From Catajapyx aquilonaris (lineage: Eukaryota), in assembly GCA_000934665.2 (NCBI GenBank), contig KZ538727.1:1-51140 (forward strand): a stretch of 51,140 nt of DNA, in the 5' to 3' direction. A program made the translations under genes and the position numbers. A model generated the notes under the pieces. It was not told where the DNA came from and did no database searches. It was given only the letters and a program-made list of their open reading frames with translations. Shown piece after piece: positions 1 to 32,880 of the stretch (positions within the stretch are counted from its first letter, which is position 1; every line of letters starts with the position of its first letter).

Positions 1-442
1 GTATATGCTGAGGATTTTTGTATTATCGCCTTGGATCTTTTCTCTCCCAAAGCACACAGCTTAATGAAGCGATTCACCCCCTGCTTAATGTTTGATGAGT
101 ATGGCGATTAAAATATCCTTGCGAGAAGAGGGGGGCGGTTTTAATTCCAGAAAAAGTGAGAAGCCAGGTGAAAATAACCAGCTGCGAACCAAACATAGGA
201 AGAAAAAAAAAGTGTTGTATGTCGAGAGGAGGATGAGGAGGAAGAAGAGGGCATATAGGGGAGGAGGAAAAACCACATTTCTGTGTGCCCCCCAAATCCA
301 GGCGGGATCAGGCCTCCCTTGTACATAATTCAGGAAGAGCTTGTAGACACACATGCATATGTAATGCAAACACTTTGGCCTGGGGGTTAAGTCCCAGCCG
401 TTAAGCCCCTTCTGGGATGAAAATAGTAGGGGGGGGGGGGGG

Positions 443-525
443 NNNNNNNNNNNNNNNNNNNNNNNNNNNNNNNNNNNNNNNNNNNNNNNNNNNNNNNNNN
501 NNNNNNNNNNNNNNNNNNNNNNNNN
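443..525. other. Assembly gap between poly-G and poly-C (other gaps at 23669-23680, 29016-29020, 38977-39006, 46357-46381)
   Basis: N runs. Confidence 0.99.
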
Positions 526-1913
526 CCCCCCCCCCCCCCCCAACCTTTTGCGTTTTTTTCGGTGTTTCAGTTTTGCAATTATTGTACCTCCGGTTTCCAG
601 CCAATTATATATAACGACGCGACAATTACCAATAAACACCCCAAAGGCATCAAACTGTCCCAATTAATGTAGACCAAAAAAAAAAGACTGCCAAATAAAC
701 ATTATACTAAAAATAAGTTTAGTTCATATTTTAAACATTTTTCCCAAGCTCATTGTTAATTGGCGACCTAGTTTTAAAATTCGGGGGGTGTGCTAAGGAG
801 AGGTGTTTAGTAGTCCGGGGGGCGCCAACTAATTAATTAGAAGCGTGTCGTTGCGTGACGTTTACAGGGGTCTAACTGCTTGAGATATACTTTACTTCTG
901 ACCAGTAATGGGGGAGGGGGAGGGCATTACCTGACTTATTTATAACCGTTTTCGTGGTGTGGAAATTAAGGGGGGGGGGGTCGAGCGGATGTTATATTAG
1001 GCCCGGCCACAATAATGGAAGTAGTGCCAACAATGAAGCCGACTGTGCTATCACTTAGACAGATTTGTGTACAAGTCTGACATTTTTTTGGGTGCTGTGA
1101 CATTTTTGTGAACGTAGCGTAATCCCCTCTGAGTACACCTTTTTTTTCCCCTCTCTCTGTACTGATCCTCTGAGCTCATTGCCAACGAAACTAAGCCAGT
1201 TTGTTGTATTATAACCTAACCTAACGTTTCCCTTGATAACCAGGTACTCGTTTTATTTGTAATTATTTACATTATTTAATTACTGTGTGTGTGTACTTGT
1301 AACAGATGTACAGAGCTGGTGCGCAGGATTTGTGCAAGGTAATTATCGAATGTCTGGTCCGTGGCAGATTGGGCCTAAGCAACCAATAATCAGCTCCACT
1401 GGGAGTGGGAAAGGGGGGGGGGGGTGGATATTGACACGGGGGACGTTAAATGCCGGCAATTTAGTGCAAATTGCGCTGCAGGGAGACAGTGTTGCAGCTC
1501 CGGGGGTCATAAATGGTGACGGGGCTAAGATGGATTCTTGTGGACTTTTGGCTGCGCCGCGCGAGTTTTGTTGGACACATCACGTCAAACCGGGGCCTCA
1601 TTATTGCCGTTCATTTTATACCGCAGTGCATTTAATTAAAATGCAGGAACCCCGATGCGTGTTTACTTGGGCTCTGGTTGACCCGTAAATCTTTTAATGA
1701 ATTCGCTCCCCCCTCCCACCCTTTCCATCCCCTCCATCCGCCGATGATATTGCCTTTTTGGCGAGTGAATTCGCGCGGAAATCAGTCTCGCTGTAATATT
1801 GCATCCAAATTAATATCCGGAAAGGGAGCCCAGCGGTATGTGTGACATGCAGTGACATGGTGGGGGAAAGAGAGAGGAATTTCAGTGCGCACCCACACTC
1901 GCGCAGGTCCATT

Positions 1914-2138
1914 CTGCCGTCAGATATGAGAAGACCGTAACTCAATGTCCACTTCCCCTTGCGGCGAGAAAAAAAAGTAGTGGTACCGAAAGCATCCAAG
2001 AGGTGGAGTTGGGGTGCCGTTCCTTTTTGCCACCTTCCCCCAACGCCACCTCTTGGATGCTTTCGGTAACACTTGCTTTCTTTTCTCGCCGCAAGGGAAG
2101 TTAATATTGAGTTACGGTCTTCTCATATCTGACGGCAG
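1914..2138. mobile_element. Foldback MITE with ~100-bp inverted arms and CATT target-site duplication
   Basis: CTGCCGTCAGATATGAGAAGACCGTAACTCAAT ... ATTGAGTTACGGTCTTCTCATATCTGACGGCAG, flanked by CATT at 1910-1913 and 2139-2142. Confidence 0.85.
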
Positions 2139-2239
2139 CATTGTTGTCACAACTACCCGTAGCCTTGGAAACGGCGCTAACGTCGGCCGCATTGTTCCCC
2201 CTGCCAACCGTAGCGTTGGAAATAGCTGGAGCTCTTACA

Positions 2240-2452
2240 CAGGGTGTTTCAACTTTTTTGTCCGAACAGTTGTCGGAAATATTGCACTATAAGCTGCTAC
2301 TTTGTAAGCAGTGACTTGCAACCGGTTTGTCGGAGGAATGGGGAATATTCCCTGCGAATCTGAGGTTGAAGTGGCATACACTGCTTACAAAGTAGCAGCT
2401 TAGTGCAATATTTTTCCGATAACTGTTCGGACAAAAAAGTTGAAACACCCTG
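2240..2452. mobile_element. Tc1/mariner-type foldback MITE (CAGGGTG...CACCCTG)
   Basis: Long inverted arms CAGGGTGTTTCAACTTTTTTGTCCGAACAGTT ... AACTGTTCGGACAAAAAAGTTGAAACACCCTG. Confidence 0.85.
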
Positions 2453-3706
2453 AATACCAGTTCTTCCACTATCATTGGTAATGCCAACCGTGCACTATGC
2501 GTGAACTGTGATGCGCACTCGGTTACGCTCATCAGCATTGGGCCACAAAATTCTGCCCGATATCTCCACCATTTTAACGGCCAGTTAAGTCACTTTCCGG
2601 CAGAAAAATTTGTGGAAAACAATGTGCTTCGACGTTTTTAATTTAGGTAATGCAGTGGACATATACAATCCAGATGAAATTTTTACATGTTGCCTGTAGT
2701 GTACAGGGTGGTTCACTGCCTCTTTTAAGCACTTGTTTAGTGGAATGTAAATAGCCGTGGACTTGTGGTATGCACCACCCGGTATTGCTGGAGGCTCATG
2801 CACTTCAATTAAAATTAGCCCCCGACCGCGGTACGTACATCCGGCGCAATGTGCGCATTCCCCTGTTGTTGTTGGCCAGCCAAGGATTTATTTTTGCCCC
2901 GGATATCACCCATCATATCAGCGACTCTCATTTTCGCACACACACCCACACACCCACAAAAAATTGAGCAAAAAAAGCTCCCCAGCATCATTTTCCAAAC
3001 AAGAATTAACGCCCCGATTGATTGTCGATGTCCACATTAAATCGAGAGTTAGGGCGTCGCATGGGGGGGCGTCCATGGCACCTATCTGTCTATTGATTGG
3101 GTCCAAAACAGCCAGGCAGTTTTGCCACCCGGGCGTGATTTTTGGAACGCCCGCTCGCCCACACCAAACACCCGAAAATTTTGTGGGCAAGATTACGCGG
3201 TGTGAAACTCAATCAAAAATGGCGGAAACGCACTTGCGGCCATAGGGGGTGATCAGCGGTTTGAGAGTAACTGCCAGTTGCTACGAATAACGACGTGATG
3301 ATGGTCGCCATCGCCAGTGTTGTCCTTTCAAAAAAAATATGGACCCGGAGAACCAATCGGAAGTATTGACGAGGCTCAATTAACCAATCGCCCTCTAATT
3401 GGGCTGATCAATTCGTCGGTGGGGGAATTTAATTTACTTTAGTGTGAAACGGGCGTGTTTACTCTCAATCTGATCTGACCGATGTGGGCACAGTATTAGT
3501 CACGGAGCGATTGAACAGCTAGTTCTCCCCATCCAACTAGGTGCCTGCTGAGTGTGCAAAAATAAATATAACTGAACTTCCAATTAAAGCGTCACAGAAA
3601 TAATTCCAAAATCGTACTAACACTAAGGAACGCAATTAAACTGCTGCTATCCGTTAAAGACATGCTATGAAGCAATTAAATGATGAAATTGTCGTCATTA
3701 AGGCCA

Positions 3707-4375
3707 GTTAGGTAGGACAAATAACACAGATAACTGTTAACAAACTACTTACTAACTAATAACCAACAGTTAACTGTTAACAAACTACTTACTAACTAAT
3801 AACCAACAGTTAACTGTTTGCCAACTAATAATTGACTCTTAACTAATACCAAACTGTTTACCACCTAAGAACCAAGTTATCTAACTGTTAACTAACCTTG
3901 AGTTAACTAATATACCAATTTGGTAAACTTAACTAACCAATAACCAACAGTTAACTAATAGTTAACTAGCTAATAACCAACACATTTAACTGTTAACTAA
4001 CTATTTACTAACTAATAACTAACATTTCACTGTTTGCTACTATAATAACTAACTCTTAACTAATAACAAACAGTTTACTAACTAAAAACCAAGTTGTCTA
4101 ACTGTTAATTAACTAATATCTAACTAATTATTAACTGTTAACTAACGTTTAACTAACCAATAGCCAACAGTTAGCTAACAACTAACAGTTAAGCAACAAA
4201 TAACCAACAATTAACTAATACGTTAGCTAACAAGTAACAGTGAAATAACAATCAGCAATTTAACTTATAGATAACGAACAAATAACAGTAAAATAACAAA
4301 TAACCAACAGTTAACTGAAAGTTAACTACAACGAACAGTAAAATAGTCAACAGTTTACTAATAGAGTTAGGTATG
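3707..4375. repeat. Degenerate AT-rich minisatellite (TAACTAATAACCAACAGT / GTTAAC core)
   Basis: Includes a perfect 40-bp tandem duplication, 3731-3770 and 3771-3810. Confidence 0.9.
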
Positions 4376-6407
4376 AAAATAACTGGCCCCTGAAGTAGCC
4401 CTGAACAATATGATCCGAATAATTTGAACTAATTTTTGCTCCCAGTTGACTCAAAATGACTGCGGCTATAACAGAAGAAATGGCAACGTGACTCTTTCGC
4501 AATAAGTGATATTTGCAGCGTTATAGTCTTCTTTCCTTTTTGTTCTAAAAGCATCCCCCAATTTTTCTGTGGGGGATTCTTCTTCTTCTTCTGTCTTTGC
4601 TGGGAGAGAATTTCTAGGGTGGAGCCCAGCAGGAGAGTCTAGGGGGAAGCGGACGATTTTGGTGGAATCAAGGCGTTCGTCAACACAATCAAGTGCCTGA
4701 CCGGAAAGGAGGCTTTTTCCTCCGGTCCTTCCTCTTTGAAGATGGGCAAAGAAACTGAAGGGAGAGGAGGAGGAGGGGGGGGGGGTTGCTCCTCTTAGCT
4801 GGCTCTCTCTTGGGAAGAGATTCAGCTGCAATAACAGTCGGCTGCAGGAAAGAGCTTAGTGGAGCCCACTGTCAGGCGCATCGCCACTTCTTTCCAGCAC
4901 GGGCCAACACCATTTCTACCCTACTCTTCTTCTTTCCCCCCTCCAAAAAACTGACTCTAGACCTCCCAAGATTTTCCGCCCCCACTGACTCTGCCAACAC
5001 TTTCCCCCCCGGGTACTCTAAGGCCTTCTAATTGCCTGAAAAAAAACCTGCCAGAGATTGAAATCGATGGTGAAGACTGACCGTCAAGGCATAACAATTA
5101 AGAGATATCGAAATTCCGCATAGTATCAGGCGTGTAATTAGATGTTGCCTAAATTCATGGGGTGTCTATATCAGCTTGATCTCACCCCCCACTTTTTTAT
5201 AGCATCATCTCCCCCCCCCCCCTTCCTCGTGGGAAAATGTAGCCAGTGGCATCCANGGGGGGGGGGGGTGAGTTTCCATACCGGATAAACAAGGCATGAA
5301 AACAAACCGTTTTTCGGGTGGGGTCCTGAAATTCTACAGTTCTCTCTCTCCTGGTGGCACAACCAATTTTCCCAACCAGTGACAAATCAATCAGAGTCAT
5401 CAAACTGTTCATAAACGACGCCTATTGTACTCTCTCAGTCCCTGGTCAGCCAATCACACGCGCCCACTGACAACAATGGTTCAAACCAGGCCAACCCTAA
5501 TTTCTGTGGCAAAAATTTGGCAACCTAGCGGGGTCTAAATGAGTCAAATGTCAAGACCCCCCCCCCACCCCACCCTGGAAGTCTTAAATAAAAAAGTTTT
5601 AAACAACACACTTGGAGCAAGACCACGCGATCATTAATCACTCCTAAAGAGCATTGCCCAACAAAAGAGGCCTCCAAATTTTTCCCTCTCTCTTTTCTTC
5701 ACTTTCCCCCCCTTTCTTCTGGCGGAGTTGCCAGTGACAGAACGTCCTTTAAGAGAAAAGAGAGGCCTATACGACGTCAAAGTGCAAGCAGAGTAAATAG
5801 CACAGGGTGGTGCAAGTTTCCAATAGAAATATGACTTATTTTCAATAGTTACTGCAACTGTTGAGCAATTACACTTCAATGAGAGTTGGTTGTTCCTTTT
5901 CTTTAAATCGGTTCTTGGTCAGTGCCCATGCTGCAAATCACTGCGGATTTTCAGAAAGGTCCATCCGAATGCCCGCAGTACTCCATCTTGCAAGACAGCG
6001 TTGATCTGCCGTCATTACAACTAACCTACCCAAGTATTGAGCGCTCCTTTCCGATTCATTTGACCACAACAATGCTATCCGCAAACACATTTTTTTTCCA
6101 TCGGAAGGAAGGGTCGTTAAGGTTGATGAGGACATTGGATGAACAATTGCTCCTTACAAATTACCCTTCAGAAATTTATGGGGAGAAAAAGAAAGTGAAA
6201 AATTTGTCCTGCCTTTGTTACTCGCTGGAGAGATTTTAAAAAAAGAGGATGATTGTCAACAGAGATGGTTATACAACAGGAGTTGTTTTAGTGATATATA
6301 TGAGGACACTCTTATTCCTAAACACGCAGGTTTTAGACAGGTTATTGCCCGTGTTATAAGAGCCGCGATTTCGTCGTTCGGAAGTACAATAGCGATTTGC
6401 TACTCAA

Positions 6408-6858
6408 ATAAGAGCTGCTATTTTAGTAGCAAATCGCTGCTACTTTCGAATGACTAAATCGCTGCTAGTTTTGCCTGTTATAAGAGCTGCTATTTTAGTA
6501 GCAAATAGCTGCTACTTTCGAATGATGAGATCGCTGCTAGTTTTGCCTGTTATAAGAACTGCTATTGTAGTATCAAATAGCTGCTACTTTCGAATGACGA
6601 AATCGCTGCTAGTTTTGCTTGTTATAAGAGCTGTTATTTTAGTAGCAAATAGCTGCTACTTTCGAATGACGAAATCGCTGCTAGTTTTGCCTGTTATAAG
6701 AGCTGCTATTTTAATAGCAAATCGCTCCTACTTTCGAATGACGAAATCGCTGCTAGTTTTGCCTGTTATAAGAGCTGCTATTTTAGTAGCAAATCGCTGC
6801 TACTTTCGAATGACGAAATAGCTGCTAGTTTTGCCTGTTATAAGTGCTGCTAGTTTTG
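6408..6858. repeat. 72-bp tandem repeat, ~6 copies, made of three GCTGCTA-containing subunits
   Basis: Visible periodicity; produces the 24-aa repeating ORF at 6450-6821. Confidence 0.95.
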
Positions 6859-7983
6859 AATAGCAGAATCCTTGTGTTGTGAATCCATGGATGGTGGTCA
6901 GTTTCTGAAGGCTAGATCAGGCCTGGTTATTCAGAGGATGGGGAGGACCATCCCAGGAGCATTAGCAGGATTGGGCTGCTGGCACTAATGACCCCCCCAT
7001 CTCCCACCCCCAACCCCCCAACCCCCTCCTAGAATTAATGGGGTGCAGCGCCCAAGAAATGAAGGCCGCCCGGCGATAAGAGTCCTGATAATTTGATTAG
7101 AGAACCTGGGCTGGCGTAATGAGCAGCGGATGGATCCAGAGGCTGAGACTTCCCTTTATACACCTGCATGACCTCTCTCTCCCCCCCTTCGTTTATCTCC
7201 ATTTATACCCTCGCTTTCTTAATTTTACGCGAGCTTCTTAATAAGGCCTTCCCCTCCTCCCCTTCCCTCCCCCTCCTGAGAAAGGCCACGGCTTTCCAGC
7301 ATCCATAAAGGAAACAATTTGGCCCTTCTCTTTAGATTGGATTAACTGGTCCATTATTTTCATTCTCCGCGCTAATGCTCGGTATCGCTCGCCTCTCTTC
7401 TTGCTTCCGAAAAAAATGGAGGTTCAGAAAGAATGGGGGAAAATAATATTTTGGCTTACGACAGACTCTTGTCTGGTATATGAACACAGTCTGATACAGC
7501 CTACGATACTTCCATCTCCTCGTCCACTCCCGTGTGAACGTCCCCATAAATAAACCATTACACGTGCCACATTACAGTGCCGGATTGTGTTACAGTGTCC
7601 TGTAAGAGAGCCCTGTAGTGCCATAAAATTATGGAGGAATTGATTGCATGCAAGTTTGTATCACTACCTGGGGAACGAAACGAAGAGGCCGGAAGGAGCG
7701 CAACAGGTGTGTGGCTGGGCTTGGCCTAGGCCTACTGCACAGCACTCAATGTGGTATGTCTCTTTCGTTTTGTGGGACACTTGCAGTGCGGTCTGCTGGG
7801 TTGGAATATTCGCAAAAAGGAAGGATTAAAATGGGGGGGGAAAAGAGGGAAGCTCATTATCTCCACGATTGCGAGATCCTTCAGGATTATAGGGAATTTG
7901 TCGGGATTTATTCTGAAGGAAGAGGATAATGTGTAGGGCTGAGCAATCAAAACAACATTCATTATACTGCAGATGATTTTTTT

Positions 7984-8169
7984 TACGAGGAAGTGCGCAC
8001 CCACGCTCGCGCAGTTCCACTGTTCTGGCAACAACGTTGCCACATTCTAGGTTCGTTCCAGAGCATTGACAACGTCACCTAAATTGTTTCCCCCAAGTGT
8101 AGCGTCTAGAGAGTTTACCAGCAACCGTGAATGCTGCGCGAACTGTGGTGCGCACTCGGTTGAGCTCGT
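7984..8169. mobile_element. MITE, AGTGCGCACC-TIR family
   Basis: TACGAG..AGTGCGCACCCACGCTCGCGCA ... TGCGCGAACTGTGGTGCGCACTCGGTTGAGCTCGT. Confidence 0.7.
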
Positions 8170-10924
8170 CTTGTTTATGTACTGGGTAGAAATTATAGAG
8201 CCATAAAAAAGGGGGGGCTGTCCGCACATTGCATTTTCTAGAGCGTAGATTTTACGAAGGGACTTGGCGGGGGGCTGGGGGGAATAGAGAAATCATACAA
8301 TTCCATAAACCAGGGATGGAAATGTGTCTCCCAGTGGGGGAGGCCCAAACCGGCGGCGTGCCTTGCCAAGTGGGCATCCCCTGAGCGAGAATTTATGTTC
8401 GCTGCATCGGGAAGCGAAGAGATTGAGTGACAAGAGAGTAAGGGATAGAGGGACAGTGTCCCTTGGGAGGTCACCACTGCTGCTGGGCCCCCGTCACTGA
8501 CCCCGTCCGAACTAAGTCCATTCCTCATCACCCCTTGTGGGACACTCCTCGTTTTTGAACGAAAAAAAAATTGTCCCTCTGGAAATTCTGAATGAAAAAT
8601 TAGCAATTGAGCTCAATATTGAATCCACCAGTTGGAACCATTTTAAGCGATTTTTTGGGGATGAAATTGTTGTTGAGCGATTTGGACTAGAATGTCGAGT
8701 TTCTGACCACCCTGTGCCGGGTTTAACCTGATTCTCCAATAGTGTCCGGTGCATTTGGTCTAGTCCAACCCCGGCAATTGGGCAGCGCAAACCAAACCAT
8801 CTGAAGGACATGGGGGCCTGGGTGTTCTAAGAGGATTTGTAAACTTGGGTATAGCGATGGTCCCCTGGGGTCATCCTGGGAGTGGGGATCATGTAAGTGT
8901 GGTGTTGGAGGTATAGGGAGAGGAGAGGAAGGGAGGAGGAGGGCTTTAACCCACTTAGGAAAGTGCGATTCAATTTGCTCCATGGCAAGCTCTAACGTGT
9001 TTATTCCACGGGTCTAGAGGGGTAGGTATCAGGCCCTCCCTTATCAATTGCTAATAAGTGCAGCCAACCGCCGGCTGGCTATGCAACTTGCATTGTTTTC
9101 CACGCTAATCCTGTCGCTCAGCCTTCTGTCCTTTAGCTGCACATGTACAGGGTGACTCTGGAGGCACCTCACTTAAGTTAAATTTTATTTTGAACAAAAA
9201 AAATGCAATTGTTCTTTTATGTAAGAATGATCTGTGCATATTTCTCCACAGGGCTCCACAAAATGGATATGAAAATATATGAATAAAGATCCGCATATTT
9301 CGTGCAGTATATTTCGCAATTTTTTTTGAATGTGCCAATATCAGATTTTGTAGACGCCAACTTATGAATGTTGTCGAATACAGGTATTATTGCCAATTTA
9401 TTGGGCTTAGCTCTCTTTGATAAGATTTCAACTTGTTTATGACGTGTACTTTTGAATGCGGCGTCTGAAATCAGGGCACGTATATTTGCAAAAGATGATT
9501 GAAAAGAATTTAATAAGCACAAAATATTGTGAGCATTTCAAAAAAATTGCAAATATTGACTTCCAATGCAAAATGGACACAATAATACGTGAATAATATG
9601 CTTTTTAATAGTGTTCATCGATTATACAAGGTGACATTATTCGCTATTTGCGTGCTGTACATTCCTTGCGTTAATGCTGAATTGTTCGTTACAATTATTT
9701 GTGCAAACTGTACTAATTACTAATCAGCTGGCAACCCATCTTTTGGGGAAAAGACGTGAAGGATGACGATTTTTGATAAAATATGCCATCAAAGTAAAAA
9801 AAAATCTAACTGAAAAGAGCACTTCTTACTTGAGAACTTTAAGAACCTTCTTTTATAGTACCAAGTAGACATTAGACGTATTGTGAGGCCCCGTGTTTGT
9901 TTGTTCGGTGTGTGTGGAGGTGCTTAAGAGGAGCTTCGGATAAAGGGCAGGGCGGTTTGGCAGTGGGACAGAAATGGAAGTAAAACTAATGAAGTAGTAA
10001 TTAAGACGGCGCCAAGGGTGCGAATGGCCTTCGTCTCAATTAGCAGGATGAGAGCGAGAGAGAATCCCCCCCAGTTTGCGCATCACTAATTAATATTCTC
10101 CAAAGCTAAGTAAAATGCATGCAACCCCCCCTCGAATTATTGTGTGAAGTGAGGCCCACTTTACCTCAAAAAGCTCTTTTGAAACACAACATTGGGAGGA
10201 AGAATCTGCTTTAAACATCGCGATTTTGCGAAATTTTTCGCATTTATAGTGACATAGTTTCCAGCGGTTTCCAGCCACTGAACAATTTGAGAGAGTTTTA
10301 TCCTGACTCTTCCACGCAACCAATGCTGCTCTTTTGTGTTGTTGGCTGCCTGACTGTCAGGATATACTCTGCGATGAGCTGCCAGGCATTTAAATCACTT
10401 GTTCAATAGCCATTGAATATTTAGCAGTTAACTCCTTAGAGACAACATATAACAGCACTTAACTGGAAACACCATCTTTTTTTTCTAATGTTTCTTTTGC
10501 ATTGTAATTTTTTAAAAACATATTACGTCTCTTCTTTAATGGAATTAATCATTAAATGTAGTTGATTAAAGATGCAAAATCGGTGTCGATCCTGGCTCAG
10601 AACCGCACCGTGTCGTCGCCCATTATTGGTCCATCCAATGCTGGGGAAGTTAAAAGATTAAAGAGAGAGGTCGTCAGAGAAAGAGCAAAGGGTAGAGACA
10701 GTTGGGGTTAGTTGAGGATCGTGCCAAGAGAAAAGGAGACTGAAGGAAAGGGGGGTTGGAGTAGTGGAGGAGAGGTGTCCAAATGGGGGGAGGACGTCCC
10801 TGGGGCCAAATCCCGAGGGATTAGCGCTGCAAAGCGTTGGCATCCCGGATGCGGAACAACAGGACACGCCTCTCCTTCAGGAATTAGCGGACGGGAACAT
10901 CCCCCCAGCTTAAAGCTCTCTCTA

Positions 10925-10959
10925 TACAGGGTGTCCCCCCATTCTGAGCACACCCTGTA
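10925..10959. mobile_element. Minimal Tc1/mariner-type TIR pair
   Basis: TACAGGGTGT, short spacer, ACACCCTGTA. Confidence 0.55.
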
Positions 10960-12080
10960 CTTTGCATCTCCAGGATCGATCCTATGGAGGCTTCCATCAG
11001 TCCTGGAGACTTGAGAGAAGGAGCCGCGCGATAAACGTCTGCAGGGATATTAATATTGTAGGCATAAACTCCACATAAGTTATCTGCTAATGAATAAGTC
11101 AGGGGAGGAGGAGGAGGAGAAACCGTTTTCTCCGCGGGCTATGTGTCTAGTTATCGCATATTTAGGAGGCTTGGTGGTGAGGAAGGCTGGGGGGGTGAGC
11201 CTAATTAGACGCCGTCATCACGTACTCTCATCCGGATGGGATGAAGGTACGGAGTTTGGCATTGTTGGAAGGTGTAGCAAGAATGTGCGATATTGGGTTG
11301 GTAAACTTTTGCAAAATTGGCTCTCGATATATTACGACTATCTAGTTATTAAAATTCTGTAACAAATCGGCCACAAAGTTACCTGATAATAATTAGTTGC
11401 CTTTGAATCAACTTTTTGAACCTACATTATGTGCACAGTATGTCTCAGGCTACATCCAGCTTGAATTCCGTCTCCACAATGTTCGCGTTTTGTTCTCTGT
11501 ACTACAGTAGAAACAAAAAAAGAGAGAATTTCTGAACAAAAGTTGTGCCTTTTCAACATATCCTCGTCACAAAGTGGATATATCTGTAACCTGGAAGCCA
11601 TGAGAAAGAAGCCTGCATTGCGTCTAGGTATGGCCCGAGGATATGCAGAAGGTTCTATCGGATATCCCATCCATAGTCCGGGGTGGTGTCTGGCCCAGGA
11701 CCAAAACCCAGGGGCAGTCCTGGACCACTTCCTCTCCCCCCCCCCTCCCCTCCCACATTTTCTGAAAGCATAGGATGGGCATAAAAAGGAATGGGTGTTT
11801 GGGAGGGGAGGGGTTGGATGTGCTGTGCAAGCCACTCACCCCTTTCTAAACTACGCTCCGTTTCCTTTTGGCTCGGGTTCAATCGGCCGCAAAACTGGGG
11901 CCTGGGAAAGGATCACTCACTGTTGGCACCCTTGCACATGTGAATCACACCCAAGTCGCGATAACTGTAGCTCTGATCTTTTTTTTAAAAAAAAAAATCT
12001 TCGCAAGGTTAGGACTATTGTTAGCCTGATTCGAGTATACCAGAAAGCATAAAATCATATTTAAGAATATATACAATGTA

Positions 12081-12572
12081 TCTATATTATAAATAGCAAA
12101 GTTTGTTTGTCCATAGCAACAGGATTACCATGGCAACGGATTACCATGGCATCAAAAAAAAACAATGATTATTGTTGATTACTTGACCATGGATACCGGC
12201 CGTGAAAAGAACCCGTTGCTAGTTTCTACATATATGTAAAAGGCACTCTTTGGGACATAAGTTATCTCAAATACCTACGCATCTTTAATATAAAAGGCAA
12301 AGTTTGTTGGCTTGTTTGCCGAATAAGTGCCCAATTTATTCATACCCATTTTGTGATTGATTGCTGTTGATTACATGGCCATGGAAACAGGACATGCGAC
12401 GAACGGGCTCCGCTGCTAGTATATCTACATATGTAAAAGGGAAAGTTTGTTTGCATGTTTTGCTCATTTTGTACCCAACTTATACCCATTTCGTACCCAA
12501 TTTATGATTGATTGATTGTTGATTACCTTGCCATGGAAACAGGCCGTCTGAGGTACTGTTTCCCTCTGGTAG
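12081..12572 (+). mobile_element. Three clustered head-to-tail non-autonomous Helitrons (12081-12222, 12282-12419, 12424-12572)
   Basis: Each starts A|TC...TAAA(A)..AAAGTTTGTT and ends CTAG|T (third GTAG|T); shared internal TGATTG..GTTGATTAC..CCATGGA. Termini resemble insect Lep1-like Helitrons. Confidence 0.75.
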
Positions 12573-15500
12573 TGCCGGTTTAAAACGGGGTTTTGGCGTC
12601 ATCGGCGGCCATTTTGGATTTGAAAACCAGGCCTTTTTATACTGTTGAACTCAAGTTTTCCTCTCTCGGTGTATATATAAAATGGTAAAGAGAGAGTCTA
12701 GTAGAGACGACAAAATTGGGGGAAGTGTCCGGATGGCATCGGGCTGGGATTGCGGGTTGGTTGTCTTGCTGACGCCGGCCAGACTGCTGGAAACTTGCCA
12801 AAATCCAGCTCCCTTCCCTACCACCCCTCGATATCTCTCCCCCCCATCCCCACCCCTCCTTTTGCCGGATGCAGCTCTCCCCGAATTCCTACAACAAACG
12901 TCGCAAATTACTATCCCGGGCTTCCATTTCCACCAAAACAATATATACTGCAAGGAAGAGGGCGAAGTCCATGCTCAACCTTACTCTGGAAAGAAGAAAA
13001 AAAACTTTCATTTTTTTATTATTTGGAAAAGGGAAGCATCAGACAATGATTGTTGCTCCAGCGAAAATTTCATCATCTTCTGGAGTAAAGTTTAGCTCCG
13101 CGTAAATTTTATTAAGGCATGTGTTTGTAGGACCTTTTGAAGGAGAAGGGATCGGATTGAGGCGTAAATCATCACAAAAAGGAGGATTGCTTCTGTTTTG
13201 TAATCATGTAGAAAGTGGAAACTACTTTTGAACAACTCAGCAGGAGTTCATGTCCCGACTTTGAGACGAAACATTTTGCCTTATTTCGAACAGTGAAAAT
13301 AAATTTATAAACATTTTAAAGCAAAAATGGGGTTGAAAATGGTTCCGTTTACAATATTTCAAATGGGTACGCAGTGATTGGTATCCCGACTCTAAGACGT
13401 GACATTATGTTCCGACTTCAAGACGGAACAGCCTGTGTGCTGACAGCCTTTTTCTATTATGTTGTAGTTATTCCCTCCCGCCCCCCAACTTTTGTACAAT
13501 CCGGTGACGTTCGCCTCCCAATATCGGAATGTAGTTGTCGCAGTCCCCCAACTGGTGACCTGATCCGCTCCAAATGAAACACTCTCTTCTCTGCAGCCTT
13601 GTTGCCAGAAGTTTTCCTCGGAGTCAGCCACTAAATTAATGCTTACAGCGAGCCAGCTACTAAAACTGAGTGCTCCGGAGCCAAAAGTGAATTTTGATCC
13701 TCACAGTGCTTAAGATAAGGCTCGCTTTAGGGAGTAGTTGGATCAAAGTGTTCCTTTCCCCATATACCCCTTCAAAGGAAGGTCATTTTACTGTAGGTCA
13801 GATTCAAAAATTACACACATAGAATTGGCTCGAGTGTGCACCTCTGTTTGTCCAGGTTGAGGATGCGACATCAATGTACGAGTGATATCGTACTGCGTGG
13901 ACACTTGGTGGCAACTTGCTGAACTCTTTCCTTTAAAAGCTATGCAGCAAGGGTTTGGTTGGTTGTGCAGTATTTTCTGGCAGAGTTATCTGAATGGCTT
14001 CTTCTGTCTCATGCTTGCACTTCCTTTGGGGATCGATGCTGTCCTTCTTCTGCTCGGTTTGGCGCCACGGAGTTTCGCAATGGGAAGACTGGATTCAAAG
14101 TGGCTTAGCTGCCATTCTTTTTTTTCTTCTCTGGAACCGAGAGTAGGCCTAGGGGCAAAGGTTCGATCCTTGAAATGCCCCCAGCTCAACATGCTCCTCC
14201 TGAGTTGTAATTGCTGCGAGAAGTGGCCCATTTGTATTTTACACTGAGCTTACCCCCCCAAGGGAGGATCAATCCGACACGACTCTGTAATATGTCCTTT
14301 CTTTGGACAGGGAAAAGAAGCCACTGATTGAGCTCGTTGCGGCCTGCGCCATCTTGTTCCGCTCGGGGTACGCCTTTCAAAGCAAGATGTCCGGTTAACG
14401 GAGGGTAAAACGACAAAGAAACGTCACCCAAGTGCTCCCTCGCTCTATACGTATAAAAGGGAAATTCCACAACCACAGCCAATCACGGCCCACGACGCGA
14501 CGTCACCCATGAATATCGATATTATCTCAGTACGTAGTGGAAGGGAATATCGATACACATCAAATAGGGCCGTTTGAAATGTGAGTCTAATGTGTTTGCC
14601 GCGTTAGAACTGGATAGGTTAATTAATATAGATTATAATTACGCGTATATACAGAAACTCTACATGAATAATTGATCCTCAGGAGTTCACCTTGAAAGTT
14701 TTGCTAAACGTACTTAAGCAGGATGTGTACAGTATCATCGGTTTAGCCAGTATGTGGTCAGCCTGCTGAATAATTCTGTGGAACAATGCTGGCTGGCGAT
14801 AAATATGCGAATAAAGAATGAAGTACAGGAATGAAGCGGTGTGGTTTTGAAGGAGGGTGTAATTCTGCCATGTTTTGAACCGAAAAGGAGGCCGAAGTAA
14901 TTGGCGGAAATGTTTGTGGCTCGGCCCACTGGTCTCTCTTGGGTTACAAGTTTACCATAACAATGTTTACAGCTCTCTTCTTCATTCTTGTATATTTGAG
15001 TCTCTAGCTGTGGTGAGTGGTGGAGGACCAGACGCGCTCGATGGCGTTTCGAGCGCGTCTGCATTTCCCCCGTAATATGACTTGTGACTTTTTAATCGCC
15101 GCGCTTTCACTCTTTGCACGTAACACAATAGAAGTAATTCATTAATCCTGTGGCTGGAGCTTTGGCGAGGTATTTTTGGGAGGGGCTTGAGGCAATTAAC
15201 ACCATATTTAGCAGGGGGGTAGTTATTAAAAATAGTGTCATCGCTGTATGTTTACACGTCCCTAATGAGAAGGGTCCGCGGCTATTTCAACATGGAAATT
15301 GCATTTATTTTTCACCTGGCCTGGTAATTAGCTGCGTATTTACACTGCGGGGGGTATCATTCCCCGCCCCTCAATTCAATTTGCGCTCCTTCATACCCGC
15401 AGCAACTACTACGTTGCCTTACACTACATTCGCAACAGATTCATAATTTCACAATTCGTAATAATCTTTCAGACGAAATGACGCAGTTGCCTTTATTTTC

Positions 15501-16107
15501 CCGCTCCTGAGAACCGTACTTTCTACTTTAAAGTAAATAAATTAGGCGCGAAATATTCATATCAATCTAAAATTCGAAAACCTGACACGGAGGAACTGTG
15601 GATTTTTTTTTTCGAGAAAAAATGTACTTTTTTATGATCTCTCTCCCCAACGGGTTTCCCTTGCTCGGTAATGATGAATGACAAGCGAGGTGAAAGGTAA
15701 TTGACATTTTTGCAGAAGTCAGAAAGAGAGTGAGTACCAAGTGTGTTGAAGCTGCCATTAGTGGTTGGGCTCCTCCTCATGCCCTCAGGGAGGGGGGGTC
15801 TGTGGGTGGGTTGAAAGAGAAATTGAATCTGGATCGATTATCGGAAGTGGGTGGTGGGGAATATAGAAAAAAAAGGACAAGAGAGAGAAAGGCCGGCCGG
15901 TTTGGGCCATTTCTATGCAGGAAAAAAGCGATCATGTTTCAGCCGTCTTAAGGGCCAGATCCGATTCTTTCTCTCTCTAGACACAATACTAAAGAAACTG
16001 GCTGGTTGCTAGGGAGAGTATTTCCAACCCTGAAACACAATCTAACTAATTAACCTCATTTTAATCATGTTACGAAATAATTGTCAACTAGTGCACCCCT
16101 TAGCAAA

Positions 16108-16235
16108 ACATGGCAACACTGCCCACTTTTGGTTCCGTTCTGAGCTCATAGATGGCGCATCCTCCCTCTCTGCACACTACTGCCACTCTCAGTGTCATGA
16201 TGAGGAAAGTGGTACTACCTACTCTCGTGCAACCC
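16108..16235 (+). repeat. Dispersed repeat family A (TAGATGGCGCATCCTCCCTCTCTGCACACTACTGCCACTCTCAG core)
   Basis: Core near-identical to copies at 38631-38785 and 47903-48070. Confidence 0.8.
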
Positions 16236-16363
16236 CCAGAAGACTATGTCCCTCGAGGCTTTAGCAGGCTCTTTGTCCGGTCGGATAATGTTTGTAACCG
16301 GACACTAATGTCCCGAAAGTGTGTTTGGGCCTTACCCCTGATGGGTTTTGTCTCTCGTTGCAG

Positions 16364-16411
16364 GATCGCTGTCCAGCTGGGCCGACTGGTGGACATACGA
16401 TGGCATCTCTG
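16364..16411 (+). CDS. CA10: Internal 48-nt coding exon (phase 1-1) of a carbonic anhydrase-related protein (CA10/CA11-like, invertebrate CARP); flanking exons not found in window
   Basis: Acceptor ttttgtctctcgttgcag|G with branch-like CTGAT at 16338-16342 and donor CTG|gtgagt at 16412. Translation (G)SLSSWADWWTYDGIS(G) matches my recall of the invertebrate CARP motif SW(E/D)(E/D)WWTYDGISGPxFWG. Confidence 0.85.
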
Positions 16412-17817
16412 GTGAGTATACACTGCATGTCTCCAAGGCATGGGAACTAACGGCTCGTACTACATTATATACATCGAAAAGTACTTGACATTTTGCGGCC
16501 AGATGCTGCCAGCGGATAATTGCTAAGCATTGATTCCATGGGAAAGTGTCAAGCGTTTTGAGCTGATATTGAATTCAAGTGAGGAATTTCGCTGAGCTAG
16601 AGTTGGAAACTTTCTCTCGCGGGGCATTTTGTTTACGAAAAGTCTCAAGTGTCGCTCCCGGATGCATTTCTCTTGCTCTCGATCCCTTATTCATGGGGCC
16701 TCACTTAATTCGGTCTCTTAGCTGTGGCCAACCACAACCCAAAAGAAGTAAGGCAGAGAACGCGTAATGATTCAGTTAAAGAGTGCAAATGCGTGTAAAG
16801 GACTGGATTCCTTTTTGCAAAAACTTGGCCTACTTCTTCTTTTTTTTTTTTGGAGAAGTGGTTTTTGGGGCTGGGGCCGAGCAGAAGGCAATTCCAAAGT
16901 GGGGTGTGGTATAGGGAAAGGGGAGATGACAAATTGCTTTGCGTATGACGTTTCGTATTCACGCTCACGAGGTGCTCCATCCCGTGGACTCCAAAAGTCA
17001 TTTCGGAAATGGCCCGCCGTTTCCTTGCACTCGTTATGTACCATGTATCTAGGAGGGTTGGATGGGGGAAATCGATGTGTGGATAAAGAGAAACCGCAGA
17101 AGGGGTTCCGGTTAACCCAAAAGTTGTAGCCATAATACCCCCCAAAAAATATTATGGAAAAAATGCTTGAAAAGTGAATAACAAACCATGCTGTGTGGGG
17201 GTCAAACATTGTGAACAACACATGTGGCGTGTCTCTCCCAATCAATTGACCCGCATGCTCATGGATCCGTTATGTAACATCTGCACCTTGCATATGACAT
17301 CTGTTCAACCTGTTATTGGCCTGTAATAATAATTTCCCCTCTCGATCAGTATTAGTATTGTTGTGCGGAGGAATAAAAAGCCCGGAATTAGGGGGGAATC
17401 CTTATCCTGGGACAAGTAAATCAATCGGAGTCATTAAAAGTTTTGAGAGCGAGTTGTCAGCATAATCTGCGGAGAGAAGCAAAGGCTGCTTTTGCTGCAG
17501 GGATAATCAATCAGCCTCGAATTCTGGGGGTGTACAAGAGGAGGAGAGAGGGCCTAGCAGCAGGGGGGAGAGAGAGGGTGGGGGGAGACATTAATCAATG
17601 GGCCTGGCCCGTAAATAATCAGATTTAAAGCCGGCGTTTTATTGCCAGGACTCGGTTTTACCAGGGGGACCCCCCACCTAGAAGGACGGGGGATAATCAC
17701 TTCGGGAATTCCAGTGGTGGAAATGTGACGTCACAAGTGCAACTTTACTTTAAAAAATTAAACATCATAAAAGTTTCATAAAAATTATCTATAAAAACAT
17801 GGTGGGATGGTTGGTTT

Positions 17818-18843: not shown

Positions 18844-20569
18844 CTTACATCCTTACATCCGAAGATAGAAGGAAAATGTGTACTAATTAAAAATTTTAAA
18901 AACAGTTAAGGGTCGTTCACACTTTTATTATGCACAAAATGTACAGTGTGCAGAGCATATGGATGTTCATTAAAAGTTTATACAGAACTTGACCCTTACA
19001 TATTGGTTGAATGGCATTACTGAGCCTTGAACTAGTTCCCTGCATTTCAATTAATTAACTTATTAATAAATTGCGTTATTAATATTTACTATTGTTATTG
19101 CAAAAGTAGGTCACCTAATCAACAAATAATTATGATATGCCGTATAGGCCTATTTGAAAATTATTATTGGTAATGAATGGAATATGTACGTATGTCAACG
19201 TTATTGATGTTAGGTTAGAATAATTACTTATACGCGTACATTGATATTTAAATAAAATAATAATAAGATCATCAACTCTCAGGTATAGAATATTAATATA
19301 TAAAAGTGCATGTATGTTTTACGATTTATGAATTATGTCATTAAATGTTACATCATTATTTGTATATTTTAATGTCTACATTGATTAGATCGCAGACTAC
19401 CTCTTTTGTATAGAGAAATTTTGTGATGTGTTTATAATTCGAATATTATTATAATATCACACTTATTTAGCCTTATTTACTGATTTATCGGTTGTGCTAT
19501 CTTGAACTATAGGTCAACTGGCCTCACACCTTGCATTGTTAAAAGGCATTCTCTCAGTTTTCAATCCGCCTTTATTTCCAACCCCTTCCGTGACGTCACT
19601 GCCGGCCCAAATCTGTCCCTGGGCCGCTTGTATTTTTCACTCGGCGGCGAATCTAATTCGGCGTGATTCCATTTGGGTGTTTATCTTGCAGGTCTTGTGG
19701 CCTGGGCCTCAAGGAAAGAGAGAGAGAGAGAGAAAAAAAAGAGCGATCGATTTGCGATCACGCCCCCTGATAGTTGGGCCAAAAGTCTTGTATACGTGTG
19801 TGTGTGTGTGTGGGCGAAAAGTACAAGGTGTATGATTCGCATATCATGCTATGTACATTTTGTTTTAGAAGCGCCATTTTCTCAGTTCGTCCAGGAAGGC
19901 GGATACAGCCTATGACACTTCCATCGTGCCAGGGCGTTTCATACCCATTCGATGCCAATTTTCTGACTAACGATGTGTAGGAGACGAACCTAGTGATTCT
20001 CTGGTTTCAGCGGATTCTTCCTGGATCGTTATGAGACACCCTGTGTGCCTGTCCAACCTGGCAATGTTTTTGCAGTGTTGACATTTGAGAACTGGTCCCC
20101 TCTGAGTGAAATTGAACTGCCTCCGGGCATTGTGGACTCTGCTGGTTTTGAGAGGATGGGTTGTGGATGGGGGGGCCGCATATTGCGTCGTTGTCCCCTC
20201 TTCACTTATTGGCCGGTTAATAACAGCTCCCTAGTTCTCTTTTTCGCACACAACTATGTATACACCTGTTACGGCATGCAGGCCATTTGATGTCAAATTA
20301 CCAACAGGTGTGGTTGCTCATGCATGAGAGGCGATTCCTGTGTGTGTCATACGAGACTTTTTGTGGGCCATATCCGATTACAAGGCCTGGAGCTGAGCCC
20401 ACTCTTGTATAGTTTGGTTTAGCAACATTCCGGGTTTGTATTTAGTAAGGCTACAAGCACCCGAAATGTTATAGTCAAAAGGGATGAAAGTGTCGTAAAC
20501 TCAATCGGCCCGGGCTGTTCACCCCTCACATACGTAGATACTACCTTATATGTAATTTGCTGGGCGAGA

Positions 20570-21496: not shown

Positions 21497-21630
21497 ATAG
21501 AATTGGCTTGAGGCTGTGCCTCTGTTTGTCCTGGATGTGCTAAGTTCATGTAGTACCACCACCCTCCACGACTCTGAGTGGCAGGAGTGTGCAGTGAGGA
21601 TGCGCCATCTATGGGCGAAGTAAGGTACTA
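21497..21630 (-). repeat. Dispersed repeat family A copy
   Basis: GAGTGGCAGGAGTGTGCAG..GAGGATGCGCCATCTATG, reverse complement of core. Confidence 0.75.
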
Positions 21631-24600
21631 TTGGCGGAGATTGAGCCTACGACACTTCCACAGCCTTATGATCTTATAACACATTATGAACCACTCTTTA
21701 TGCTAGAAATTTTCATGCTTTTAATGATTTCAACTGGTGGAAATAAACATGCCATGTCCATTTGTGCAAGAACGAGCAACTCGATTGAACGAGCAGTACA
21801 CGTACTTTACGTCGGTTTAACTGCAAGAGTTGTCATACCTCGCTACTAATTTGCTTTATGAGTTCTGACGAGTGGGGGAGTAATAGAAAGGCGGGCCAGG
21901 ACATGCGGAAAAAACGCGTGTCCCATTGATGTCGGCATAATGAATGTTCCAACTGTTCCAGTTGTCGCGGTGATTTCATAGTTTGTCATGATTTTTTTTT
22001 GTTGGAAAAAAATGCACATTCCTACCCACCACACTTCCTTTTTTTAAAAAAAAACTAACTATGTGAACCTCCCTCACTGCTGTTCAAACTAATCAGGTTT
22101 CATTATACGGCATTGATTTGCATAAATGTAAACACAATAACTCGAGTTATGCAGTCGTGATTGGGAGATTAAAATTGCATTAATTTGACCAATATGACCA
22201 AAATTAATGGCTCGTTTAATTTTATTGGGCTAGTCGGCGTGGAAACATTTTGGAGGGTAAAATTGAGGCCGCCTCGGTTTTCTGCCCAAACTGTGCAGTT
22301 TGTGGAGGTTTTGTCTGTTGCGGATACAACTACTGGACTATAAGCCAAGCAAGTGGCTTTTCAGGTGTCTCCTCAGGTTAATATGTAAATGGATGGCAGC
22401 ATTGACCCAGTTGGAAAGAGGCAGGTGGAAATGGCCACCTCCAGCTGCCACGGGAAGCACTAAGGGAAACAGATGGATCCGCAGAGAAACCCTCGCAAAG
22501 ACCTCACTATTTGATAACTGTCCAGCCAACCACTATGTAGTCCGATAGAGGCGCTACTGTTGACGGAACTGACGTGGCCGGAAGGTTGTGATACCTTACT
22601 CTTCGGATAATCATTTTAAAAGAAGAAGTAATGGACACCAGCTCTTGAATAGTGTAGGGTAGTGCATTAATGAAAGAGGTAATGGCTCTTGCATGTGTTC
22701 CTGGCCAGTCGTCAATATCGTCCCGGGTGAGAAATTGAAGCTGGAGTTAGTGAAATCCGGAGTCACGTTCCAACCATCTTGGCTGGAGTCACGTAAAGCA
22801 AACTGTGGGGGACACAGGCGTGGCAGAGAGGGCAAGAAGAGAGAGAAAAAAAACCCTCCTTTTTTTCTCTCCTTTAAAAAAAAATCCGCTTGTACTACAC
22901 GCTTTCGATATATTCCCTGGGCCTTGCCTCCCTTCTTTAGTCACTTTTTATGAGACGCGACGTGCCTAACGAGCCCCAGGCATTATCACCAGGCTCGAAA
23001 GTGCTTCAGACAACAAATGGTCTTCTTGTGTATCCCAACCCAAAAGTGGTCGCCATATTTTTCCGGAGGACTCTCCTTTTCTTTTCACTCTGGAGAGTGA
23101 CAAATGCACTCGATATTTTTTGGGGAGGGGATGAATGCACTACTGGATGTAGCTAGTGATCAACTGCAGACAGCCAAGCATATTAGGACCTCCCCCCAAA
23201 AAATGGGATCTCAAGTATTAAATCGAGCAATATAAGCGAAAATTACGAAGGGTGTCTCAAATTGTCTATTAATATAAGTGTAATGATATTCATTTACATA
23301 AAGTACATCGTCAACTTGAACGATTGGTGCCCATAGATGCCACGAACATAAAGTAAATAGCCCCAGAAATTATTTTTAACAATGCGTATTTCGGTGTCAG
23401 TATAACAGGGCGTAACCAGCGTAACTTGTAGTCATACCCAGTTCTATCCGCAATGATTGGAAAAAACGCCCCATTTTGCCGGGCAGTCCGTTTAATGGGC
23501 CAAGATTGGAGGCAATGAGGGCGGAAATGTTGCGCTAGTAATCGCTCCGATTATTTTAATGGACGGGGGCCAACGCTGTTGATTAGTTTCATATTTGCAA
23601 TGACATAATAAAGGCGTCAAATGAGCGTCATGCGGCTATTTGACGACAGCCGGGATTAGTGTCCACCCNNNNNNNNNNNNCCCCCCCCCCTCCCAAAACC
23701 CAACAACAAAACGGACGCGTTTAAATTGGGAGGCCGGGGCCGAAAGTGACACACTCGAATGTAAATGGGGGGGCTTCGAACAGGTTAGTAGGCGGCGAAA
23801 AAAAAAATCGGCAAAATTTCAGCACTAGTTTTGGAGCAATCAAATTTTTTTACGCAAATATCTCTCGTAAAAATGAACGTGACAAAACTTTTAAAATTGT
23901 GACTTGCATTTGCTGTTGGTTTATTTATTATTTGATTTTTTTATTATTACAAGTAAGCCATTAGTGTGCCAAGTTTCACTATCAGTAGTCTGAAAGTGAG
24001 TTAGGTAGGTGTGACAACATATATTGATGTACTGTGTACAGTATATGTAAGATTCATTTACTTATTATGGTAGTTCACGAACAAATATGCTGGAAGGCAC
24101 TTTTAGTGACACATTTTATAATATTTGTTGCAGGGGATCAGCAATACAGAGGGCAATTAATATGCTGCAGTGGTGAATAAAATATTATTTTTCAGTTCGT
24201 CTATGCTGGTCACAATTTATCTGCAGAATCATAATTATTGGAAGGATGCATCGTCGCTCCTGCAGGATATTCATGATTCCTGGAATTGGATTCTCCTCAC
24301 ACTTTGGTCCATTGTGGTCCCCCCCGAATTGACGCCTTTGACTGGCCCGTCTGTAGATGTGCAATAAAGCGTTGTAAAACGTGAGCGACGCGACTTTTTT
24401 GAACCGTCGCGACAACAAAAAGATCTGGGGGTCCAATTTGACCCCAGTCGTGGATAGAAGTGTTGCTTGTGCCAAAAGCTGGGGGGGGGGAGATTCCCTG
24501 GATATTAAGCCGCGTCTGGTGCCACCGTAGTCTCCTTTTTAAAAAAAGAAACCCCCTTAGTCGACGCTTTATTAGGCCGGGCTCTTTTCTATCCCCCGAC

Positions 24601-27131: not shown

Positions 27132-27312
27132 GAGCTTGGCAACGTCGCAACCGTCGGCCATTTTGTTGTCCTCCCCAGCATAGCGTTGGAAATACGTGCA
27201 GCAAAGTACACATCCACTTTACCGTTCTGTAAACTATAGTAAAGTGGGTGTACTTTGCTGCACGTATTTCCAACGCTATGCTGGAGAAGGCGTTTGCGAC
27301 GTTGCCAAGCTC
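27132..27312. mobile_element. Foldback element / MITE
   Basis: Arms GAGCTTGGCAACGTCGCAA..CCAGCATAGCGTTGGAAATACGTGCAGCAAAGTACAC and their reverse complement. Confidence 0.8.
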
Positions 27313-30070: not shown

Positions 30071-30289
30071 GGGCCGAATTCAGAGAGGTTGCTTAACGTA
30101 AACGCGCCCGATTAAATCCTTTAGTCAGCCTCGATTAGCAAATTTAATCAACCTGCTAATACAAAGACCGTGATTAGCGCTAAGCGCCCCCTAATCGCAC
30201 TTGCTAGCACTTTTAAATTTGCTAATCGAGGATGACTAAAGGATTTAATCGGGCGCGATTACGTTAAGCAACCTCTCTGAATTCGGCCC
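30071..30289. mobile_element. MITE with ~75-bp TIRs (GGGCCGAATTCAGAGAGG; PIF/Harbinger-like terminus, TSD not resolved)
   Basis: Near-perfect inverted repeat; the ORF track shows the same peptide LGPNSERLLNV on both strands. Confidence 0.85.
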
Positions 30290-30340: not shown

Positions 30341-30500
30341 CAGAGTTTGTGTCCGGGCCTCTCTTTGTCCGGAGTGAGTCATCATCTCAGCTAGGTGCAT
30401 GTAGTACTGAACCACTACCATTCGCACGACCCTGAGAGTGGCAGTAGTGTGCCATTGGTGTGAGGGATGTGGTACTAGGGCAGTGTTGCCAAGTTTTGCT
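30341..30500 (-). repeat. Dispersed repeat family A copy
   Basis: CAGCTAGGTGCATGTAGTACT..CTGAGAGTGGCAGTAGTGTGC..CAGTGTTGCCAAG. Confidence 0.75.
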
Positions 30501-31244
30501 CCAAACTGCAAATGGCACGTATTTCCAACCGTAGCTGCGTCGTCTGGATGCGCAGTAGACTGAATTCCCTTATGGCGATGACATTACTATTCCGACCTGC
30601 AGGTATAGGAGAAAAGGTAGCTTTTCCCCCCCTCGGGTGTGATGGATCCTACGGGGCGAAATAATAGGGTGGGTTAAAGAGGGGGTGGCGGGGGTATGCA
30701 AAGGGGGAGGGGTGATCATGAGTGGGGTGGTTGGTGGTCCCCGGAGCCTGGTCTGCGCCCAATTCCCCCACCACCACCACCAGCCAGGCCCCCCCTGCCA
30801 TTCAATCAGGGAGGTCGGCCGCAAAGTTGGTCGCCATTTGCATCCAAACGCCCCCCTCGCGCAACGCTTCCAACCCAATCCTTTGATGGGCTATGGGGAA
30901 AAAGGTGCGCCATCTTATCATATAATGGATTACTCAGCCTCCTCCTCCTCAGCCTCTCCTTTCCTCTTATGCCTTTTTATGCTCGCCCGACTTATGCGAT
31001 GGGGGCTCAACCCTCAAATTGGGACGAGCTGATCAGCTCCCGATTTTGAGAGGAAAATTCTCCATTTTGCAGGTTGGCGACGCATTTGCCCGCCATTTTG
31101 CGGGATGACGCATTAGCAGCAGCCATTTTGGTGTCATGCTCGCCCCTTTTTTATTACGAACATATCAACAGAATGCAAGGAGATACTGTATATTTAAGAC
31201 TGGAGTAATATTGGAAGAGAAATAAGCATATGAACGTAGTGGCC

Positions 31245-31620
31245 CACGATATTCGACATATCGAACTTTCGATCAGCATGTCGATATATCGAACTTCGTT
31301 CAAACAGTCGATATATCGAACATGCTACCTGCGTATCGATATATTGGACGCGGCATAAACATCGCTACCGGTACATCGAACATCCTGTCTATTTCGATAT
31401 ATCGAATATGACTGTCGATGTGTCAATATTTGACGGATGATTTGATTTGTCAACGATTCTGTCGATATTTTGCATAATAAGATCGACATTTTAAAATATT
31501 GTATTGTTGATATGTTTTAATGTTTGTCAGGATATTTATTGATTTTTTTCGATATTAGGTTGAAATATATCGAACACAATTCGATATTTATGCAATTGAT
31601 GTGTAATCACATTGATATCG
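31245..31620. repeat. Degenerate TCGATATATCGAAC minisatellite
   Basis: Repeated TCGATAT/ATATCGAAC units related to the 32385-32880 array. Confidence 0.8.
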
Positions 31621-32384: not shown

Positions 32385-32880
32385 TCGATATATCGAACAT
32401 GCTATCGGTATTTTGAGTATCGAATTCTATAACTAAACATTGATATATCGCATATGATATCGATATTTTATGACCATCTACTTTCATAATTGCCCACCAA
32501 TATATCAAACATGTTATCGATATATTGAACGTCGAAGTTCACACATGCATATCGATATATTGAACATCGAAGTTCACACATGCATATCGATATATTGAAC
32601 ATCGAAGTTCACACATGCATATCGATATATTGAACATCGAAGTTCACACATGCATATCGATATATTGAACATCGAAGTTCACACATGCATATCGATATAT
32701 TGAACATCGAAGTTCACACATGCATATCGATATATTGAATATCGAAGTCCTTACATGCATATCGATATATCGAACCTGGTATCGATATTTTGAATATCGA
32801 ATTTCACGAGTACACATCGATGCATCGAATATAATATCGATACTCAGTTCTCGAAGTCGATTTGAGATATATCGATAGCA
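32385..32880. repeat. 35-bp tandem repeat (ATCGATATATTGAACATCGAAGTTCACACATGCAT), 7 full units 32516-32760 with degenerate flanks
   Basis: Units start at 32516, 32551, 32586, 32621, 32656, 32691, 32726. Confidence 0.95.

Follow-up and report, generated by a model that had tools for sequence, protein, structure and literature searches.

According to PMC4539348, insect genomes hold two CA10-like genes, all predicted to encode secreted proteins. Vertebrate CA10 is reported to bind the neurexin stalk through a Leu-Val element and a Cys loop, to form a bond with neurexin via its tail residue Cys310, and to block the addition of heparan sulfate (PMC8024894). Long 5′ introns are described as typical of neuronal genes, both vertebrate and invertebrate (PMC7222433), and nearly 10% of the Drosophila genes are reported to be nested, about 29% of those on the same strand (PMC5174743). 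A publication describing the gene structure reported here in arthropods was not found among titles and abstract openings; supplements could hold exon tables. The DNA analyzed in this study, referred to as the window, is a 51,140-nt stretch of Catajapyx aquilonaris that represents the entire contig G000:C1372 of a 285.6-Mb assembly with 20,583 contigs. We are nearly certain that a 48-nt segment of this window is a genuine exon of an ordinary and well-known nervous-system gene, coding for a carbonic anhydrase predicted to be enzymatically dead, and we estimate at about 0.93 the probability that it is the constitutive exon 2 of a single arthropod CARP-A gene (CG1402-type, CA10-like).

The coordinates of this exon and of the associated features are listed in Table 1. 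The acceptor, ...tctctcgttgcag, terminates at position 16363 and is preceded by a branch-like CTGAT at 16338, and the translation of the exon, SLSSWADWWTYDGIS, is flanked by two split Gly codons. The original prediction had postulated at this position a consensus-spliced phase 1-1 exon of the CA10/CARP family and had found neither a GPxFWG exon downstream nor a signal-peptide exon upstream. These claims were confirmed: AG and GT bracket positions 16364-16411, co-oriented CARP exons were found on other contigs on both sides, and a motif scan detected no second CARP exon in the window. When 217 retrieved proteins were compared with the window by tblastn, 127 matched the exon, and the sole other place was hit by one match with an E value of 0.048. 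A search with a downstream exon retrieved P0003, a 318-aa protein encoded by a 2,023-nt Logan contig from a separate, related source, which probably corresponds to a spliced mRNA from a close relative. Residues 21-34 of P0003 are identical to the exon peptide at 14 of 14 positions. By its homologues, the source organism belongs to the arthropods.

Table 1. Positions of the CARP-A exons, introns and related features (positions without a contig name refer to the window)
Feature	Position	Strand	Remarks
CARP-A exon 1	G000:C5801:11002-11053	+	17 hydrophobic codons plus one base, GTAAGA donor
End overlap with C5801:11543-11980	1-432	+	438 nt, 431/438 identical; ties exon 1 to the window
Intron 1, window part	1-16363	+	~16,852 nt in total; N gaps at 443-525 and 5256
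Intron 1 3′ splice site	16338-16363	+	branch-like CTGAT, pyrimidine tract, CAG; consensus match only
CARP-A coding exon 2	16364-16411	+	48 nt, phase 1-1; codes for the N terminus of the mature protein
Intron 2 5′ splice site	16412-16417	+	GTGAGT
Intron 2, window part	16412-51140	+	predicted length at least 40,703 nt; exon 3 at G000:C2700:5975-6111, +
eIF2-beta paralog, intron-poor	40184-41167	+	same strand, within predicted CARP-A intron 2
CARP-A exons 3-5	C2700:5975-6111, 15623-15814, 19976-20071	exon 3 +	from mapping of P0003
CARP-A exons 6-10	C749:741-807, 22508-22662, 30670-30801, 31359-31401, 33542-33573		from mapping of P0003
CARP-B exon 2	G000:C1947:20499-20549	-	51 nt, phase 1-1
CARP-B downstream exons	G000:C744:14030-29457	+	paralog with the same exon layout
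Neurexin-1-like 3′ exons	G000:C687:69281-69430 and ~70470-71440	+	stalk near C687:69320-69380

As the window is a whole contig, the remaining exons of the gene must sit on other contigs. In agreement with the original prediction, which had found no signal-peptide exon upstream, none was detected in positions 1-16300, where the best of 64 ATG-to-phase-1-donor candidates scored 10, no better than the reverse-strand control (11.5). Searches of the genome with the whole protein and with 30 residues did not find exon 1 either. In a pattern search, all 65 hits of which were screened, a segment on contig C5801 ranked first with a score of 53, followed by 32 for the next hit, and its length and phase were as predicted from P0003. 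Candidates on C4157, C25, C15458, C2250, and C8636 were rejected as chance pattern matches. The overlap of C5801 with the start of the window is unique, as no third matching place exists in the genome, and provides independent support for exon 1 because it was discovered after the exon had been chosen. Exon 1 is therefore physically linked to the window exon. The length of intron 1, which takes this overlap into account, agrees with the earlier estimate of probably more than 16 kb.

The complete model comprises 10 exons on four contigs, with exon 1 on C5801, exon 2 in the window, exons 3-5 on C2700, and exons 6-10 on C749. C2700 was found to overlap neither with the end of the window nor with C749, and the joins from exon 2 to exon 3 and from C2700 to C749 are suggested by homology to P0003. 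All nine introns are of the GT-AG type and in phase, and there are no internal stop codons. The model without exon 1 has 299 residues, 281 of which (94%) are identical to P0003; for the full model of 317 aa the number is 292 of 317. Intron 5 has a length of at least 10,104 nt and intron 6 of 21,700 nt, and the coding span amounts to approximately 114.7 kb or more. The earlier statement that no GPxFWG exon follows downstream and that intron 2 must exceed 34 kb was correct, whereas the term "giant" for the introns was an overstatement: with 16.9 kb and at least 40.7 kb, they can be called long, and the intron 2 of the paralog described below also reaches at least 34.5 kb.

A chance coincidence of splice-like signals with a Trp-rich peptide might be considered, as the segment is short and gave an E value of only 2.9e-5 in a genome-wide protein search. 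However, the exon peptide had a BLOSUM score of 87, compared to 26 for the runner-up place within the window and to a best score of 41 (mean, 28) in 100 shuffled windows, and only ~5e-11 exact codings of the peptide are expected in the genome. Because of these statistics and the perfect identity to P0003 the exon is not a chance match, and its boundaries are homologous to those of the 51-nt phase 1-1 exon of the paralog. Together with the overlap of the contigs, the identity statistics refute a chance origin. The segment could alternatively be an orphan or pseudo-exon, such as a duplicated relic or a haplotype fragment, with the working exon 2 located elsewhere, which would be conceivable in view of the fragmentation of the assembly into thousands of contigs. 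We regard this as very unlikely, since the genome contains just two WWTYDGI-coding exons (window and C1947), one per paralog, the protein identity is perfect with intact splice sites, and the exon is co-linear with exon 1 through the unique overlap.

It is equally improbable that the exon belongs to the second paralog, CARP-B. The genome contains two GPAFWG exons, one on C2700 and one on C744; both have phase-1 acceptors that would take the window exon in frame, and no contig link connects the latter with either of them. P0003, however, carries exactly this N terminus, and its body is 94% identical to the C2700/C749 model but only 63% to the C744 model. Moreover, the exon on C1947 contains a Val before SW that is absent from the window exon and diagnostic of CARP-B: this residue was present in 61 of 63 EW-type (CARP-B) and in 0 of 65 QW-type (CARP-A) proteins, with 128 of the 217 proteins matching the pattern. 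As the C1947 exon has this Val, the pairing of the exons is fixed and the window exon is assigned to CARP-A. The same palindromic repeat at the ends of C1947 and C744 fits their adjacency, but was rejected as proof of it, this repeat being present at high copy number (174 candidates genome-wide).

In a maximum likelihood tree of 29 sequences, hand-picked from the 217 proteins and rooted at the midpoint with no outgroup, CARP-A and CARP-B were separated with a support of 100/100; the window gene was placed on the CARP-A side and the C1947/C744 gene on the CARP-B side. The window model and P0003 formed a group (100/100) inside the clade holding a named CARP-A protein (100/100). The EW type is that of Drosophila CG32698/CARP-B, and proteins named CARP-A are of the QW type; the label CARP-A is taken from the Osmia names and from the clade that does not contain CG32698, with D. 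melanogaster CG1402 itself lying outside the 217 proteins. The assignment to a CA10/CARP gene in the original prediction thus holds for the family and is refined by the tree and the type names to the CARP-A paralog, not CARP-B. The two paralogs of this species are 63% identical, and their exons 3-9 have equal sizes and phases (137, 192, 96, 67, 155, 132/135, and 43 nt). Exon 1 and the last exon of CARP-B were not located in the genome. As intron 2 is long in both paralogs, a long intron 2 is common to both genes.

The α-carbonic anhydrase domain PF00194 was found on P0003 (E value, 8e-67) and also on the gene's own exons, and the AlphaFold model of P0003 matched CA II in Foldseek with a TM score of 0.88. 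In the alignment to CA II, whose zinc-binding histidines are H94, H96, and H119, the zinc positions of CARP-A are Tyr120, His122, and Gln145, so that of the three zinc histidines of an active α-carbonic anhydrase one is kept and two are gone. Nearly all full-length QW-type proteins (57 of 58) had the Tyr/His/Gln triad, and nearly all EW-type proteins (60 of 61) a His/His/Gln triad (120 proteins matched). Judging from this triad, CARP-A is expected to lack CO2-hydration activity. In a comparison of positions with the published numbers for human CARP X, not a sequence alignment, Cys48, Cys230, and Cys297 match C60, C244, and C310 with offsets of 12-14, and the sequons at 104 and 156 match N116 and N168, both with an offset of 12 (PMC4539348). 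The predicted signal peptide of exon 1 was judged by its hydropathy (2.69) and position, and the P0003 model shows a helix at residues 2-19. Taken together, the CARP-A protein is very probably catalytically dead and secreted. The 60 best PDB hits by sequence and the 50 best by fold that were listed did not include a CA10/CARP X chain.

By analogy to vertebrate CA10, we consider it slightly favored that CARP-A serves as a neurexin ligand. Exon 1 would supply a signal peptide that ends close to the exon boundary, and in the secreted, N-glycosylated protein the dead carbonic anhydrase domain would serve as a scaffold for binding. Cys48 and Cys230 would form an internal disulfide, leaving the tail residue Cys297 free. 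CARP-A might then bind neurexin-1 in cis, at its membrane-proximal stalk, within the secretory pathway and become linked to the neurexin Cys loop, possibly tuning the glycosylation or the surface delivery of neurexin. The tail Cys297 is kept in CARP-A, and the genome encodes a neurexin with a Cys loop in the stalk. In this neurexin, which is located on C687, an acidic loop with two Cys residues comes after a hydrophobic-Ser-Gly stretch, an arrangement resembling the CA10 site described in PMC8024894. The protein also has another short motif of the Cys-acidic-Cys type and ends in KEWYV. The spacing differs from that of the vertebrate site, which has L-V at -3/-2 and Cys at +3 (PMC8024894), whereas in the C687 protein the Cys is at +6 or +2 from two candidate Ser residues.

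This different spacing is also in line with the assumption that the gene model is right but that the main partner is not neurexin. CARP-A would then act as a secreted or dimerizing scaffold through tail-Cys homodimers or as a helper of membrane transporters. Dimerization via the third Cys has been proposed (PMC4539348), and CARPs were reported to enhance lactate transport by MCT1 (PMC6609565). On the other hand, the tail Cys that bonds neurexin in CA10 is retained, and a Cys-loop neurexin is encoded in the genome. We regard a partner other than neurexin as a serious option, though one somewhat short of an even chance; it bears on the mechanism alone and does not conflict with the identification of the exon. 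Whether arthropod CARP-A binds neurexin is a real question, but for testing it this locus has no advantage over the gene of the fly.

The eIF2-beta gene in the window is an old, selected, retro-type duplicate. The multi-exon parental gene is split over contigs C4970 and C6140, while C460 carries a third copy. The window copy lacks two parental introns in the C-terminal domain, in which 131 of 162 residues are identical to the parent (pS, 0.80; pN, 0.12). It contains one putative intron at 40466-40525 (or -40546) with a weak GTGACT donor, at a position where the parent seems to have none, and its reading frame is followed by AATAAA at 41245-41250. The gene appears to be nested in intron 2 of CARP-A, subject to the homology-based join to C2700 and to four small N gaps between exon and gene. 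An in-frame fusion of CARP and eIF2-beta is not expected, because the eIF2-beta acceptors are in phase 0 and the CARP donor is in phase 1. It is quite unlikely, when all parts are taken jointly, that eIF2-beta, which has a separate poly(A) signal at 41245, forms a tissue-specific roadblock that would truncate or silence the CARP-A transcript and that exon 4 is removed by recursive splicing, yielding a regulated isoform of a neurexin ligand. No ratchet-point motif was found on either strand of the introns in the window.

Exon 4 of both paralogs (G000:C2700:15623 and G000:C744:19107) starts as a perfect 5′ splice site, AG/GTGAGT and AG/GTAAGT. This in-frame exon of 192 nt (phase 0-0) might be a recursive-splicing exon, or the motif might merely represent Val-Ser codons. 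The exon carries part of the dead zinc site.

Several repeats and other features were observed. Self-complementary MITE-like elements of 110-330 nt with 76-86% arm identity are located at 1911-2141, 2240-2452, 6361-6466, 27172-27287, 30071-30289, and 39133-39444 of the window, and C5801 carries a 96% copy of the element at 30071. Minisatellites were found at 6408-6870, 32515-32775, 43177-44043, and 49099-49854 (72-nt × 6.4, 35-nt × 7.5, 25-26-nt arrays, and 27-30-nt arrays). Dispersed repeats of 75-130 nt occur at 16144-16218, 21511-21633, 30360-30452, 38638-38766, and 47932-48067, with copies on C2700, C749, and C5801; one copy stops ~145 nt upstream of CARP-A exon 2. The palindromic repeat mentioned above (G000:C744:1-95, C1947:3-97) is situated directly at position 1 or close to it in many contigs and is apparently a common cause of assembly breaks. 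An open frame at 50611-51138 (+) runs past the contig end and is LINE-like, presumably resembling the N terminus of a LINE endonuclease. Pfam gave no match for three other frames of the window, including this terminal one, and Rfam gave no match in the window. Elsewhere in the genome, a syndecan-like open frame (L079; G000:C976:12591-15743, -) of at least 173 aa combines a signal, GAG sites, and a TM helix in one piece with no visible cytoplasmic tail, and may have arisen as a processed copy of the C779 syndecan.

The window thus consists mostly of long introns of the CARP-A gene, and the nearby eIF2-beta gene is settled as a duplicate, very probably within a host intron. The main value of these results lies in annotation, as a 10-exon gene was rebuilt from four contigs and two contigs were joined. 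The small exon is readily missed: 68 of the 116 retrieved relatives with the motif of the next exon lack an upstream WWTYDGISG, and many relatives without this motif are single-exon gene calls.

As expected, the gene is an orthologue belonging to a known family, and its 5′ introns are long. It falls into the same clade (100/100) as insect CARP-A (CG1402 type; Osmia "carbonic anhydrase-related protein A", P0206), with which it shares a QW-type exon 3 and the Tyr/His/Gln triad, and it is 65-73% identical to the insect members tested. It differs from them in its N terminus, SSWADWW instead of the ASWEEWW of most insects, and in a long branch (0.58) that is common to the window gene and P0003. CARP-B, represented by Drosophila CG32698 (P0150) and by the species' own gene on C1947 and C744, has the same sizes and phases of exons 3-9 and also a long intron 2, but differs in its His/His/Gln triad and its 51-nt exon 2. 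The downstream introns of the own CARP-B gene (62-4,940 nt) are much shorter than those of CARP-A (557-21,700 nt). In comparison with vertebrate CA10/CA11 (CARP X/XI) as described in PMC4539348, a predicted signal peptide whose end lies close to that of exon 1, three conserved Cys residues, two sequons, and a degenerate zinc site are shared, whereas the fourth Cys of vertebrate CARP X is absent here, as in invertebrates generally. With human CA II, CARP-A has the PF00194 domain and, according to the P0003 model, the fold in common, but the identity is only ~30%, two of the three zinc histidines are replaced, and CARP-A possesses in addition a predicted signal peptide and a Cys-bearing tail.
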